Shown one piece after another: positions 22,300 to 62,263 of a stretch of 64,000 nucleotides of DNA. The translations under genes were made by a program, and so were the position numbers. Positions within the stretch are counted from its first letter, which is position 1. Each line of letters begins with the position of its first letter. The stretch lies in IMG/VR virus record IMGVR_UViG_3300022698_000267, positions 37,575 through 101,574 of that record, one strand, 5' to 3'. Origin of the DNA: a virus. The notes under the pieces were generated by a model. The model searched no databases and was not told the origin of the DNA. It saw nothing but the letters and a program-made list of their open reading frames with translations.

Positions 22300-22328
22300 T
22301 TGACAAACTTCTAAAATATACTAATAAT
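22300..22328 (+). promoter_or_regulatory. promoter P1 of ncRNA array (TTGACA-17-AATAAT)
   Basis: -35 consensus; 45-bp core repeated at 22842. Confidence 0.4.
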
Positions 22329-22372
22329 ACATTGTAGTTAAAATTTTGTTCTTTTTCAAATGAATAGCTTAA

Positions 22373-22518
22373 AATTAAAGGGCTTGAAAGGTTGTTCAGA
22401 ATACCATGGGTTCGATCCCCATTTTTCCAGCCAAAAATTTGGAAAATAGCCTAATTGGTTAAGGCACTTGACTGATAATCAAGAATTTAATAATCAACCT
22501 TTTTCCCATCCTTTAATT
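22373..22518 (+). ncRNA. tRNA-derived structured RNA unit A: permuted tRNA-Ile(GAT)-like / YrlA-like Y RNA
   Basis: T-arm ATGGG-TTCGATC-CCCAT, 3' acceptor TTTTCCA+G+CCA, 6-nt loop, 5' acceptor TGGAAAA, D-arm GCCT-AATTGGTTA-AGGC, anticodon arm CTTGA-CTGATAA-TCAAG; leader AAAGGTTG/AATTAAAGG pairs trailer CAACCTTT/CCTTTAATT. Confidence 0.6.
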
Positions 22519-22526
22519 CTAATATT

Positions 22527-22653
22527 TTAGGAATAGAGCTTGTAAGTGATTACAGATTAGCTCAATTGGATAGAGCATCAACCTCAAAAGTTGAATGTTG
22601 TGGGTTCAATTCCCATATCTACAAAATATTACTTTCGTCTATTCTATTCCTAA
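22527..22653 (+). ncRNA. tRNA-like unit B in native order (anticodon loop CTCAAAA) embedded in long leader/trailer helix
   Basis: D-arm GCTC-AATTGGATA-GAGC, anticodon arm TCAAC/GTTGA, T-arm GTGGG-TTCAATT-CCCAT; acceptor has 2 mismatches; outer 11-bp helix TTAGGAATAGA/TCTATTCCTAA. Confidence 0.5.
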
Positions 22654-22660
22654 AAAATTT

Positions 22661-22824
22661 AAAATTTTGAGAAGCTCAATAGTTATTACAGAGTATAATA
22701 CGGAACGCTTGGTTGGAGGTTCAAGTCCTCCACCCCCGACCAAATTTGACGGGGGTTAGCTCAATTGGTAGAGCAGGTGTAAAAATTACAAAGAAATGAC
22801 TATTTAAAAATTTCTCAAAATTTT
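22661..22824 (+). ncRNA. permuted tRNA-like unit C (YrlA-like)
   Basis: GGAGG-TTCAAGT-CCTCC, ACCCCCG+A+CCA, loop, CGGGGGT, GCTC-AATTGGTA-GAGC; leader AAAATTTTGAGAA pairs trailer TTCTCAAAATTTT. Confidence 0.55.
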
Positions 22825-22827
22825 AAA

Positions 22828-22856
22828 TTCTAAAAGCATAAAAATATACTAATAAT
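22828..22856 (+). promoter_or_regulatory. promoter P2 of ncRNA array (TTCTAA-17-AATAAT), duplicate of P1 core
   Basis: 45-bp repeat aaatatactaataataYattgtagttRaaattttgttcttt shared with P1. Confidence 0.3.
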
Positions 22857-22877
22857 ATATTGTAGTTGAAAATTTTG

Positions 22878-23052
22878 TTCTTTGAAAATAAGCTAGAAGG
22901 CTCAGAAGGTGTTACAGAAATATGGAGGTTCGAGCCCTTCCCTGGCCACCACATTTATGGCCAGGTAGCCGAATTGGTACAGGCACTTGACTATGGATCA
23001 AGCAATACATTTTACACATCTTGTAACCTTCTTCTAGCTTATTTTGAAAGAA
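22878..23052 (+). ncRNA. permuted tRNA-like unit D (YrlA-like) with anticodon-like arm CTTGA-CTATGGA-TCAAG
   Basis: GGAGG-TTCGAGC-CCTTC, CCTGGCC+A+CCA, CATTTAT loop, GGCCAGG (perfect 7-bp acceptor); about 30-bp bulged leader/trailer helix. Confidence 0.6.
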
Positions 23053-59414: not shown

Positions 59415-59415
59415 A

Positions 59416-59673
59416 TTAATCCTCCGTTTTAGTAGTAACTGGTTCCCAACAATCACATTGCTTTACAGGAGCAAATTGGTCGTCTCGTTGAACAATATAT
59501 CCCATTTTTCTTTTGATTGGAGCAGGTAGTGGATAACGACAAATACCATCTCTAGTAAATTTTTCGGGGTTTAATTCGGAAATAACTGTTTTCCATTCTG
59601 ACCAGATTGGTTCCCATTTACAAGTCAGACACTTAAACTCAATTTGATTCTTCGATGATTGGGTCTTCTCCAT
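59416..59673 (-). CDS. Cys-rich small protein
   Basis: CLTCKW...CDCW. Confidence 0.4.
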   Translation of the reverse strand: MEKTQSSKNQIEFKCLTCKWEPIWSEWKTVISELNPEKFTRDGICRYPLPAPIKRKMGYIVQRDDQFAPVKQCDCWEPVTTKTED

Positions 59674-60448
59674 TGAAAATAACTCCTACTCTATTGGTTA
59701 CTTTAGAAAATACAGGCATATCTAGTCTTCTAACTTCTGTTCTTTCAATTTCTAGATCAGGATTCTCTCTTGCTTCATGTTTTGGTGGAAGTTTTTCAAT
59801 TTCTTTAGTATCAAACTTCCTAAGGACTGTTCTTTTTTGGAAGTACATTCCTCGTTTAAAATTAGCAGGATAATCATTCCAGTTCACACCTTTTTCAAAT
59901 AACATTTCCTGCATATCTTTTCCATTTTTCTTGTGTAATTGTTTGTGGGAATAGTATACTCTTGCTGCCATTGAAATACTATTTTTGGTAGCATCAAATT
60001 CTCTCCACAAAATAACATTGGCTGCTTCTTGTTTAGTCGGGACTTCCCATGCTCTACAATCGAATAGAGCAACTCTGTGTGCTTTTTCAGGAATCATCTT
60101 ACTTAAATAAGCATTAAAGGTTGCAGTGGTCACAGAAGTTAAAACAGAAACCATTTTCAATATTTTTCTATCAAAAAATATTTGGCTTTTCAAATTGTCA
60201 CTGTAATATACCAGACTAATTTCATCTGATTGTGTATGACCAATACAGGCATTAGTTTCTTTAACAAGAGTATCAACAACAATACCCATTAATTCTGATA
60301 GTCTTACATCATAAGGACGTTCTAATCCTTTTGTAAATTGACTGAAATTTTTACCATCAATTCGTACACAGATTGGAACCATAGGAAGAAACTTTCGTTT
60401 ACTTTCACGTCCTTCATACATTTTCATTCTGTCGCCTAAATCATCCAT
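59639..60448 (-). CDS. Thg1-like protein (tRNA-His guanylyltransferase family 3'-5' polymerase), catalytic residues intact
   Basis: PICVRIDGKNFSQF and IGHTQSDEISLVYY match Thg1 R(L/I)DGRNF and GQSDE metal-binding motifs. Confidence 0.7.
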   Translation of the reverse strand: MDDLGDRMKMYEGRESKRKFLPMVPICVRIDGKNFSQFTKGLERPYDVRLSELMGIVVDTLVKETNACIGHTQSDEISLVYYSDNLKSQIFFDRKILKMVSVLTSVTTATFNAYLSKMIPEKAHRVALFDCRAWEVPTKQEAANVILWREFDATKNSISMAARVYYSHKQLHKKNGKDMQEMLFEKGVNWNDYPANFKRGMYFQKRTVLRKFDTKEIEKLPPKHEARENPDLEIERTEVRRLDMPVFSKVTNRVGVIFNGEDPIIEESN

Positions 60449-60462
60449 TTATCATTTCCCTC

Positions 60463-61281
60463 TTATTTTGTATCAACAATTGGGTCTTCTCCATTGAAAA
60501 TAACTCCTACTCTATTGATTACTTCGGAAAATGGAGGCATGTCTAATCTTCTGACTTCCGTTCTTTCAAATTTCAGATCAGGATCTTTTCTTGCTATGTG
60601 TTTTGGTGGAAGATCTGTAATTTCCTCTTTATTGAACTTTTTGGAAACTTTTCTTCTTTGGAAAAAAGTTCCTCGTTGAAAACTAACAGGATAATCGTTT
60701 TTCCAATCCATATCTTTTTCAAGTAACATTGCTAATCTATCTTCTTCATTCTTTCCCAACAATTGTTTATGTGAGTAATATTGTCTTGCTGCTATTGAAA
60801 TACTTTTTTCAATTGCGACAGTTTCTTCCCATAGAATAATATTGGCTGCCTCTTCCAATGTTGGGACTCCCCAAGCTTTGCAAGAAAACACAGCAACACG
60901 GTGTGCTTTTTCTGGTATTACTTCTGGAAGGTATCTATTAAATGTTGCAGTAGTTACAGAAGAGATGACAGAAATCATTTTCATTATTTTTCTATCGAAA
61001 AATATTTGACCCTTCAAATCGTCATTGTAATAAATCAGATTGATTTCATTTGATTGTATATACCCAATGCAAGCATTAGTTTCTTTGACAATGGCTTCAG
61101 TAACAATCCACATCAAATCTCGCATTCGTGTATCGAAGGGTTTATCTAATCCTTTTGTAACTCGCTTCCAATCTATACCAGTAACTTGTATACAAATTGG
61201 AATCAAGGGCATAAATCTTCGATTACTTTCACTACCTTTGTAAAGTCTCGTTCTTTCAAATAAATCGTCTAATTTGTTCAT
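60463..61281 (-). CDS. Thg1-like paralog with degenerate active site
   Basis: About 45% similar to neighbour; PICIQVTGIDWKRV and IGYIQSNEINLIYY: first Asp to Thr, second Asp to Asn. Confidence 0.65.
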   Translation of the reverse strand: MNKLDDLFERTRLYKGSESNRRFMPLIPICIQVTGIDWKRVTKGLDKPFDTRMRDLMWIVTEAIVKETNACIGYIQSNEINLIYYNDDLKGQIFFDRKIMKMISVISSVTTATFNRYLPEVIPEKAHRVAVFSCKAWGVPTLEEAANIILWEETVAIEKSISIAARQYYSHKQLLGKNEEDRLAMLLEKDMDWKNDYPVSFQRGTFFQRRKVSKKFNKEEITDLPPKHIARKDPDLKFERTEVRRLDMPPFSEVINRVGVIFNGEDPIVDTK

Positions 61282-61290
61282 TTTAATCTC

Positions 61291-61533
61291 CTATAAAATG
61301 TCTTTATTCCAGCCGGGTTTTGTGTTATCAAGTCTTTTATACCAATCTTGATTGGCTAAGGTTATTGATGTACTCTTATTTTCATTCTGATCTTTCATGA
61401 AAGTCAAAGCTCGTAGAACGTAAAGATCTTTTTCTAGATATTCTTGTGCTACGTCAAGATGACAATGCTTTTTTACTACTTCCCTCATTGTCATAGAAAC
61501 TAATAGTCCGTCAATGATTTGTGAAGCATCCAT
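61291..61533 (-). CDS. hypothetical protein
   Basis: AAAGGAAA RBS. Confidence 0.45.
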   Translation of the reverse strand: MDASQIIDGLLVSMTMREVVKKHCHLDVAQEYLEKDLYVLRALTFMKDQNENKSTSITLANQDWYKRLDNTKPGWNKDIL

Positions 61534-61536
61534 TTA

Positions 61537-62022
61537 TCATTTCCTTTCTTTCCAATCAGTTATTTTAAAGGCTCTATCTTCGGTTATGTGAACAGAAAAT
61601 AATTTATCAAAACCTTCATTCATACTTGGTATTTCTAATCTTTGATAGCTGGCTATTACAGCTACTTTTGGAAGATTTTTATCAAGTCGTTTTTCATTTC
61701 TTTTTATACAGATATCTAAATTTGCCTGAAAATAAAAACCAATAATCGGCATTTTTACTTTCTTCAATAAGGGAAAGTATTTTTCTCTTTCTTTTTTAGA
61801 GGGATTGGTATTATCGATAACCATTGGTTGTTCTGTTTCAATACAAAATTGAATTAATTTTGATTCTCGATTTCTGGTTTTCAACATATCCAGATTGACT
61901 CTTATATGCGTATCTGCAAAGTTCTTCTGATAGAAGGTTGATTTTCCGGTGGCTGGGATTCCAATAAAAATTATGTTATTCCTTTTCCAAGAAGCTGTTG
62001 ACTTGTTTGAACTGCTTTCCAT
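61537..62022 (-). CDS. polynucleotide 5'-kinase, T4 Pnk kinase-domain-like, no phosphatase domain
   Basis: Walker A IIFIGIPATGKST, Walker B VIDNTN, lid CIKRNEKRL; GGAGGG RBS. Confidence 0.65.
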   Translation of the reverse strand: MESSSNKSTASWKRNNIIFIGIPATGKSTFYQKNFADTHIRVNLDMLKTRNRESKLIQFCIETEQPMVIDNTNPSKKEREKYFPLLKKVKMPIIGFYFQANLDICIKRNEKRLDKNLPKVAVIASYQRLEIPSMNEGFDKLFSVHITEDRAFKITDWKERK

Positions 62023-62023
62023 T

Positions 62024-62263
62024 TTATATCAAACCCTCCATCTTTAACAAAAATTGACAAGCTTTTAATCTAGTTTTAAATCCATCAGTCCCATTAAGAG
62101 GATGAGGTTTTCTCCACACAGCAGACCATCCAGAATATTTACCTAAATTAAAAACCTGTCCAATTAACTTGCCCCCAATGTAGAAAGCATAATGACTATT
62201 TTGTAACTTCTTAAAACCATAGTCCTCAACTTTTCCATTTACATTTAAAGAATACTTCGACAT
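62024..62263 (-). CDS. hypothetical protein, first gene of kinase/Thg1 operon
   Basis: TGGAGAAAAA RBS. Confidence 0.45.
   Translation of the reverse strand: MSKYSLNVNGKVEDYGFKKLQNSHYAFYIGGKLIGQVFNLGKYSGWSAVWRKPHPLNGTDGFKTRLKACQFLLKMEGLI

Follow-up and report, generated by a model that had tools for sequence, protein, structure and literature searches.

A dispersed set of probable RNA maintenance genes, with three small clusters, in part of a huge-phage genome

The stretch of DNA studied here is a 64-kb piece (hereafter the window, whose own numbering is used throughout) of the virus record IMGVR_UViG_3300022698_000267, representing about 23% of a source contig of at least 273,563 bp. The window belongs to the accessory region of a huge-phage genome and carries three physically coherent groups of genes connected with RNA: an array of tRNA-mimic RNAs followed by genes for a Ro60-like protein and an ARPP protein; a SpoU methyltransferase gene paired with a VWA-domain gene; and a polynucleotide kinase (Pnk)-type gene followed by a degenerate and an apparently active Thg1-like protein (TLP) gene. 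An initial annotation had joined these genes, with a number of scattered enzymes, into one RNA surveillance and tRNA end-repair toolkit. Most of its gene calls hold in profile or fold searches, and we consider it fairly probable that they represent a dispersed tRNA and RNA maintenance repertoire of the jumbo-phage kind, arranged as three units and not as one operon.

The 115 open reading frames (ORFs) of the whole window were compared with Pfam (E ≤ 0.01), and the key ORFs also with NCBIfam, PHROGs and the sequences of the PDB. No near-identical DNA was found for the window among 50,697 phage records, and the nearest relatives of its proteins belong to uncultured huge phages of 460-630 kb; the Thg1-like gene is closest to one in LR745206 (55% identity) and the 534-aa Ro60-like protein has its closest phage match in LR756500 (44.5% identity).

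The RNA array consists of one tRNA-like gene and five repeated units, Y1 to Y5, accompanied by promoter-like sites ahead of Y1 and Y3 and by a possible terminator after Y5 (Table 1) that the terminator scan did not call, its loop being long. Read from 5' to 3', a unit begins with a GCU..AAG..UUACAG strand (UUCAG in place of UUACAG in Y1), continues with a T-arm and the 3' strand of a 7-bp acceptor stem, directly followed in all five units by an encoded N-CCA, and then passes through a short loop, the acceptor 5' strand, a D-arm and a final 3' strand, which pairs with the 5' end to form a long closing stem. This permuted fold of T-arm, acceptor hairpin and D-arm is the minimum-energy structure of every unit (5/5). 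The layout is that of the YrlA RNAs, with permuted arms set in a long closing stem and a Ro60-like gene 1 kb downstream. At 22377-23388 Rfam gave three tRNA matches above threshold and three YrlA matches below it, the units concerned (Y2, Y5 and Y4) scoring 37.3, 34.3 and 27.1 bits against a gathering threshold of 69 bits for YrlA (RF02553). Y1 and Y3 also have an anticodon-like arm whose loop looks canonical, with U33 and a purine at position 37 (CUGAUAA in Y1, where Rfam recognises a tRNA with 41 bits at 22440-22509). These two units look less like plain Y RNAs than like circularly permuted tRNA genes.

To the five unit cores we aligned three units from two other genomes (8 sequences, 3 genomes in all). 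Thirteen base pairs could be followed, with standard pairs in 100% of the cells and changes on both sides in 10 of the 13; none of 500 shuffles reached the observed score, and slid controls were 40-55% paired. The tRNA-mimic RNAs of the initial annotation are thus borne out, by common fold and covariation, as five YrlA-like permuted units and one tRNA. Within 713 bases the plus strand has five copies of the motif TTACAG, always at the same RNA position (Y2-Y5 and the tRNA-like gene), where about 0.2 occurrences would be expected, as estimated from the window-wide shuffle mean. The tRNA-like gene, the sole tRNA called by ARAGORN, overlaps this motif with its 5' end; it carries acceptor mismatches A2.C71 and C3.A70, and the acceptor stem is missing from its minimum-energy fold. 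In M. smegmatis, RNase P cleaves a YrlA whose acceptor stem likewise has 7 bp, and CCA is added to it (PMC4201824); a similar RNase P-type processing is therefore plausible for Y1-Y5. The idea that adjacent units form split tRNAs (after an Rfam match at 23170-23315 with an 88-nucleotide insert) was rejected, as the cross-unit pairing works only for Y4/Y5 and the hairpins within units covary in all of them. A listed 67-aa ORF (22866-23069) is fully covered by Y3 with its flanks and probably does not represent a gene.

The protein encoded downstream of the array had been called Ro60-like. Pfam TROVE did not match it at E ≤ 0.01, and the solved Ro60 sequences of the PDB were matched neither by phmmer nor by a 42-sequence profile. 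An AlphaFold2 model made from the family alignment reached a pLDDT of 90.5 and a pTM of 0.87, and the ten PDB structures that Foldseek ranked first for it all belong to Ro60/TROVE, with alignments spanning the full length; in the family, the D and the second S of the MIDAS motif DxSxS are invariant and the first S is nearly so. We therefore accept this protein as Ro60-like by predicted fold and ring-VWA architecture, and not by a sequence signature. Among the 8,000 top candidates scored, at least 393 database clusters belong to the family (E ≤ 0.001), its listed members measure about 465-560 aa, and the few that bear a name are hypothetical or VWA-domain proteins from bacteria.

The gene directly after that of the Ro60-like protein encodes an ARPP-1/ARPP-2 protein, and the same two genes stand in the same order at all six loci compared (6/6), namely the window, the phage record LR756500, a 136-kb phage-like contig, a member of the Planctomycetes, a member of the Desulfococcaceae and a 523-kb metagenomic contig whose gene content points to a bacterium. 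Every locus has tRNA or tRNA-like genes close to the pair (recognised by Rfam at three of the other five and by eye at two), and most loci show permuted-type units with UUACAG-like motifs. UUACAG, or AUACAG or UUCAG, is found at a fixed place 5' of tRNA-like elements at Ro60-like/ARPP loci of unrelated genomes: at 22550-23263 in the window, near 2915, 3320 and 4365 of locus L001, near 7735 of the Planctomycetes locus, near 9005 and 9250 of locus L008 and near 8838 and 9155 of the locus on the 136-kb phage-like contig. The motif may be a protein-binding or processing site. In the Planctomycetes locus (CP036432) Band_7 and RlaP genes share a 12-kb span with the pair; genes for Band_7, Endonuclease V, Ro60-like, ARPP, a HIT-helicase fusion, EF-Tu and RlaP are found over 5056-17227, and more than 10 tRNA genes are arrayed upstream. 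The 136-kb phage-like contig also has a short PTH2-like ORF (18260-18559, 99 aa, weak match), so that the co-occurrence of a PTH2-like ORF with Ro60-like and ARPP genes may recur. The published contexts of ARPP are ADP-ribosylglycohydrolase, HIRAN, WYL and deacetylase genes, and a Ro60-like partner is not among them (PMC9503650). We found no description of the Ro60-like/ARPP/RNA-array cassette or of its presence in bacteria, although Burroughs and Aravind 2016 may already include the clade.

The cluster at the other end of the region lies on the minus strand, where the kinase gene is followed by a small ORF and the two Thg1-like genes. Both Thg1 domains score far above the Pfam cutoff of 29.2 bits (101.9 bits for the last gene and 73.9 for its paralog). 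The kinase matches the kinase domain of mammalian PNKP (5.5e-10) and CthPnk (2e-3), and the NCBIfam models of PNK-3'Pase (1.5e-10) and bacterial Pnkp (2e-7), both below their equivalog cutoffs, so that its assignment stands at family level. The Pnk-type kinase and the Thg1-like pair of the initial annotation are confirmed by these Pfam, PNKP and Thg1 matches. The protein of the last gene is much closer to the Bacillus thuringiensis TLP (1e-41) than to human Thg1 (3e-7), and it keeps the metal-binding carboxylates D31, D75 and E76 (RxDG; SDE). In its paralog the two catalytic Asp residues are replaced by Thr and Asn and the Glu is kept; among 31 homologs it deviates at 14 of 48 near-invariant positions (the D to T and D to N changes and 12 more), and at 12 of these 14 all 29 other homologs agree. 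The paralog is probably a catalytically inactive pseudo-enzyme, and a recent duplication would have given the phage a non-catalytic Thg1-like partner. Related phages have a single Thg1 copy, and tandem pairs are rare: the 164 phage records with a Thg1 homolog hold only 165 matching places. TLPs can repair 5'-truncated tRNA (PMC4820378). The pairing of a Thg1-like enzyme with a degenerate copy and a polynucleotide kinase suggests a dedicated 5'-end repair machine. No description of an active/degenerate TLP pair behind a kinase was found in the literature.

Between these two groups lies the SpoU/TrmH-class RNA 2'-O-methyltransferase gene, which the initial annotation had named and which its Pfam score upholds; no specific NCBIfam subfamily was reached. 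The VWA gene that follows it encodes a protein whose C-terminal half matches only a PHROG without assigned function, and for this SpoU-VWA pair, too, no description was found in the literature.

Table 1. Positions of RNA elements and protein-coding genes of the window discussed in the text (aa, amino acids)
Feature	Position	Strand	Remarks
Ski2-like/Hel308-type helicase, C-terminal HhH	11696-14380	+	Pfam DEAD, Helicase_C, HhH
Sigma-70-like promoter, TTGACA-17-AATAAT	22300-22328	+	11/12 consensus match only; before array, precedes Y1
Y1, YrlA-like RNA	22377-22509	+	Closing stem, T-arm, 7-bp acceptor hairpin with encoded GCCA, D-arm
tRNA-like gene	22551-22624	+	ARAGORN Leu-CAA; Rfam 56.6 bits; short variable arm
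Y2, YrlA-like RNA	22670-22810	+	T-arm, acceptor hairpin with ACCA, D-arm
Weaker promoter-like site	22822-22850		Precedes Y3
Y3, YrlA-like RNA	22892-23038	+	Anticodon-like arm, loop CUAUGGA
Y4, YrlA-like RNA	23083-23228	+	Fold z -3.1
Y5, YrlA-like RNA	23239-23388	+	Fold z -4.7
Possible terminator after Y5	23398-23447	+	CCGTGA...TCACGG stem and T-run, read from sequence
Divergent Ro60-like protein, 534 aa	24377-25981	+	Helical-repeat ring and VWA domain with DxSxS MIDAS motif
ARPP-1/ARPP-2 protein	25997-27007	+	Pfam 5e-19
Calcineurin-like metallophosphoesterase	28336-29049	+	Pfam Metallophos 1.3e-8
Small metallophosphoesterase, YfcE/PdeM-like	30579-31058	+	PHROG 547 'phosphoesterase' 6e-39; weak NCBIfam matches
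SPFH/Band-7 protein	31511-32497	+	Lipoprotein-type signal (...LGLTAC); weak link to RNA repair
Probable HAD-type phosphatase	38164-38586	+	PHROG 1238 and 23773; LDFDGV motif
Shortened PTH2 peptidyl-tRNA hydrolase, 85 aa	39325-39582	+	Pfam 33.6 bits, cutoff 23
MBL-fold hydrolase, RNase Z/PhnP-like at superfamily level	41458-42399	+	Pfam Lactamase_B_2
SpoU/TrmH-class RNA 2'-O-methyltransferase	44359-44931	+	Pfam SpoU_methylase 58.5 bits, cutoff 29.7; 1e-15
VWA-domain protein, 391 aa	44946-46121	+	14 bases after SpoU gene
RlaP-family Pol-beta nucleotidyltransferase, NrdC.11-like	54222-55205	+	PF10127 3.5e-13, 50.3 bits, cutoff 23
Thg1-like protein, bacterial TLP type	59639-60448	-	Pfam Thg1 PF04446 3e-29; last gene of cluster
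Thg1-like paralog	60463-61281	-	Pfam Thg1 1.5e-20; 62% identical to 59639-60448
80-aa ORF without assigned function	61291-61533	-	Between kinase and Thg1-like pair
P-loop kinase, polynucleotide kinase/PSTK type, 161 aa	61537-62022	-	Pfam AAA_33/KTI12

The remaining enzymes are scattered over the plus strand and differ in how precisely they can be named. The nucleotidyltransferase, proposed as a pol-beta enzyme, is specifically a member of the RlaP family (PF10127), and its closest phage homologs are those annotated nrdC.11 in T4-like phages (46% identity, RB16); members of this family add 1-2 nucleotides to the 3'-OH ends of RNA (PMC12776372). The PTH2-type call likewise stands, on the profile match and on both conserved motif segments, GKIAAQVAHA and DxGYTxVxxGxxTC, both of which can be aligned with archaeal Pth2 structures; about 30 aa of the usual length are missing, and peptidyl-tRNA hydrolase activity is what its motifs would predict. 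For the others only part of the proposed identity is retained. The helicase belongs to the Ski2/Hel308 family with an HhH domain (HHH_5 at residues 837-890; matches to ASCC3 6e-66, Brr2 5e-62 and Hel308 1e-54), but it lies outside 22300-62263, the interval to which the toolkit had been assigned, and its best NCBIfam models are named DNA helicases. Both phosphoesterases keep their family, through Pfam Metallophos and PHROG 547 respectively; neither matched a PDB sequence, and no link to RNA emerged. The HAD call is carried by PHROG matches and the DxDGV motif, with no match in Pfam or among PDB sequences. The RNase Z-like hydrolase is of the MBL superfamily, but it reached only 49.5 bits with the RNase Z equivalog TIGR02651 (cutoff 293), and PhnP gave a similar score. 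None of the four candidates for removal of 2',3'-cyclic or 3'-phosphates (the two metallophosphoesterases, the HAD-like and the MBL proteins) matched a specific family.

Around these genes the context is that of a large phage, with a lysozyme, an MreB/actin-like protein, a glycosyltransferase, many small zinc-ribbon ORFs and many matchless ORFs. The MreB/actin-like gene (20436-21458, 5e-19) lies just upstream of the RNA array and, two small ORFs further on, a small ORF (21909-22268) weakly matches DnaJ. Further upstream, 2556-3662 encodes a protein with a response-regulator receiver domain (4e-15) and a long C-terminal extension, and 14791-16332 on the minus strand is a 513-aa ORF with a run of about 13 glycines, beside a 240-aa ORF with a proline run; neither of the latter two matched a family. 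The 587-aa ORF at 35908-37671, lysine-rich and of low complexity, had no match in Pfam, NCBIfam or PHROGs, and the concatenated ORFs without assignment (4,535 aa) had none among PDB sequences, an approach that is too insensitive for this purpose.

The absence of an RNA ligase had been noted in the initial annotation. For the 64-kb window this holds: none of the 115 ORFs matched an RNA or DNA ligase family, RtcB or LigT in Pfam, and of five matches to K-x-[DNH]-G in all reading frames of at least 90 aa none had a ligase-like context; the statement does not extend beyond those 64 kb. The 439-aa ORF at 50351-51670, considered as a hidden ligase, was set aside, having 6 homologs only and a model with a pLDDT of 44.5, which is unusable. 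The RlaP family was defined through its link to ligases, and its distribution in jumbo phages mirrors theirs (PMC7824862). The RlaP-ligase gene neighbourhood was not encountered within the window. In phage T4, the RlaP homolog NrdC.11 is located far from the ligase genes, and the repair genes are dispersed. Because RlaP tracks ligases and the window is only part of the contig, the simplest and most likely explanation is that a sealing ligase gene lies in another part of the genome, or that the host provides the enzyme.

The preferred reading, a dispersed maintenance repertoire, could work as follows. The two promoter-like sites stand before the five YrlA-like RNAs and the tRNA-like gene, after which come the genes of the Ro60-like ring protein and ARPP. 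The RNAs would bind the ring protein through the closing stem with its conserved UUACAG motif and, as in the bacterial Rsr-YrlA particles, present a tRNA-shaped module, the whole forming an RNA quality-control or scaffold particle. Ends of RNA would be processed by the scattered enzymes: RlaP would add 1-2 nucleotides at 3'-OH ends, the SpoU enzyme would methylate 2'-O positions, PTH2 may free peptides from broken peptidyl-tRNA, and the MBL protein, the metallophosphoesterases and the probable HAD protein are candidates for the removal of 2',3'-cyclic or 3'-phosphates. By the chemistry of its family, the Pnk-type kinase would turn 5'-OH ends into 5'-phosphate, after which the active TLP could refill missing 5' nucleotides of the acceptor stem by templated 3'-to-5' addition, with the inactive paralog as a putative non-catalytic subunit. 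The combined outcome would be that tRNAs stay usable under attack by host nucleases. The window is rich in genes for RNA-end processing and surveillance, and a role in tRNA and RNA maintenance during infection is a reasonable reading of them.

Several points weigh against this reading. Over 40 kb, the genes are interspersed with some 90 unrelated or matchless ORFs, and on this ground the single module of the initial annotation gives way to three sub-clusters. The phosphoesterases, the HAD and MBL proteins and the helicase are assigned at superfamily level only and could act on DNA, nucleotide or signalling substrates. The SPFH/Band-7 protein, given its lipoprotein-type signal, is probably anchored in the membrane outside the cytoplasm and thus probably no cytoplasmic RNA scaffold. 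No ligase was found within 8-10 kb of the Ro60-like/ARPP pair in the four other loci with Pfam tables, and ARPP has been linked to ADP-ribose systems, not to RNA repair (PMC9503650).

A broader proposal, which we hold only tentatively and think rather doubtful, is that the array with its two genes represents a widespread ribonucleoprotein cassette of bacteria and phages, in which a Pfam-invisible Ro60 clade, always with ARPP, is served by tandem permuted RNAs with a UUACAG stem and encoded CCA; RNase P cleavage would give two-piece tRNA mimics, and in this phage the particle could join the Pnk and active/inactive TLP complex in ligase-free rebuilding of tRNA ends.

Ligase-free rebuilding can also be considered on its own, with the kinase and TLP refilling 5' ends, RlaP or the CCA-adding enzyme of the host restoring 3' ends, and a genome devoid of RNA ligase. 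The lack of ligase families among the window ORFs, the kinase-TLP-TLP genes in one co-directional cluster, the repair of 5'-truncated tRNA by TLPs and the extension of 3'-OH ends by RlaP are all in keeping with it. However, the window is a minor part of the contig, RlaP is itself defined by ligases and tracks them in jumbo phages, the T4 precedent shows repair genes dispersed, and PTH2 together with end-healing phosphatases fits better with breaks in the anticodon loop, which need sealing. We regard this route as possible but unlikely, a minority reading.

Improbable, in our opinion, is also that the enzymes serve the maturation of the phage's own tRNA-like RNAs into two-piece or permuted tRNA mimics, with RNase P, the MBL protein and CCA addition cutting the acceptor loop and the TLP correcting 5' ends, for instance that of the tRNA-like gene. 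The N-CCA after the acceptor 3' strand of all five units, the canonical-looking anticodon loops of Y1 and Y3, and the processing of the M. smegmatis YrlA would suit such a route, as would the mismatches at acceptor positions 2 and 3 of the tRNA-like gene. Acceptor mismatches at such positions are the type of substrate edited by TLPs in protist mitochondria. Both mismatches, however, are part of a UUACAG motif that is found again at the 5' ends of tRNA-like genes of other loci; a comparable mismatch is present, by our own reading of the sequence only, in a planctomycete tRNA, and the 17.6-kb planctomycete locus has no Thg1 gene, so that the mismatches may instead belong to a protein-binding motif. 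Their interpretation as a TLP-editing substrate was for this reason kept as a minority reading only. Moreover, the enzymes do not adjoin the RNA array, and in a related phage record, examined around its Thg1 gene, this gene is the only Thg1 and has no Ro60-like gene in the 5 kb about it.

Finally, it is very unlikely that the genes have no functional unity at all, being superfamily names listed together for separate roles (DNA repair, degradation of nucleotides or signals, support of translation) in a gene-rich accessory region, since, for all the 40-kb dispersal with many unrelated ORFs between, the several superfamily-only calls, a helicase nearest to DNA helicase models and the link of ARPP to ADP-ribose systems, the three tight sub-clusters are RNA-specific, the same combination is published as a jumbo-phage repertoire, and one bacterial locus holds Band_7, RlaP, Ro60-like and ARPP genes within 12 kb.

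The dispersed maintenance repertoire that we prefer is of interest because bacteria often turn, as a last line of defence against phages, to nucleases that cleave tRNA, and phage repair decides whether this defence succeeds; the window offers a well-supported example of such repair from an uncultured huge phage and raises the question of rebuilding of ends in place of ligation. If the Ro60-like/ARPP clade holds, surveys of Ro60 and Y RNAs based on the TROVE profile have missed a whole branch.

Compared with known systems, the particle resembles the bacterial Rsr-YrlA/YrlB systems (Salmonella rsr-yrlBA-rtcBA; M. smegmatis), both having a ring-plus-VWA protein beside tRNA-mimic noncoding RNAs, and it shares the 7-bp acceptor stem with the M. 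smegmatis YrlA. It differs from them in that the protein has no TROVE sequence signature and the obligate neighbour is ARPP and not RtcB/RtcA, while the RNAs score 27-37 bits against 69 for YrlA and are distinguished by five tandem copies, a genome-encoded N-CCA, an anticodon arm in two of them and a different stem motif, UUACAG. With the Pnkp and Rnl1 of T4, which act on tRNA-Lys cleaved by PrrC, the window has in common a 5' kinase, an RlaP of the NrdC.11 type and candidates for the 3' phosphatase; the kinase is here a stand-alone protein of 161 aa, closest to the metazoan PNKP kinase domain and PSTK, and the healing-and-sealing pathway of T4 includes a ligase, of which none was found in the window. 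As in bacterial Pnkp-Hen1, a kinase and a phosphoesterase occur with a 2'-O-methyltransferase that could protect a repaired junction, but the methyltransferase is of the SpoU class, the genes are separate and distant, and no ligase domain is present. The active TLP aligns with that of Bacillus thuringiensis (PDB 4kgk) over 205 residues and retains its catalytic Asp/Asp/Glu, whereas its gene adjoins that of a 62%-identical paralog in which two catalytic carboxylates are missing, and stands behind a Pnk-type kinase gene.

The closest parallel is the RNA repair repertoire surveyed in jumbo phages by Iyer, Anantharaman, Krishnan, Burroughs and Aravind (2021, Viruses 13:63), which comprises polynucleotide kinases, HAD and calcineurin-like phosphatases, RlaP, a sporadic Thg1, an archaeo-eukaryotic PTH2, phage tRNAs and a TROVE protein with a tRNA-like partner (PMC7824862). 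The archaeo-eukaryotic flavour that the initial annotation had seen in the window holds for PTH2, for which it was thus already published, and not for the active Thg1, which is closest to a bacterial TLP, or for the Ro60-like protein, which is widespread in bacteria. The survey of Iyer et al. reportedly builds on Burroughs and Aravind 2016. Components, dispersed layout and the proposed role against host tRNA nucleases are alike in the surveyed repertoire and the window; by contrast, the window has neither RtcB nor an ATP-dependent RNA ligase, its Ro60-like protein is invisible to Pfam TROVE and coupled to ARPP, its Thg1 is duplicated with one copy degenerate, and it possesses a SpoU methyltransferase. 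The window-wide theme is therefore a further example of this known jumbo-phage kind of RNA repair.

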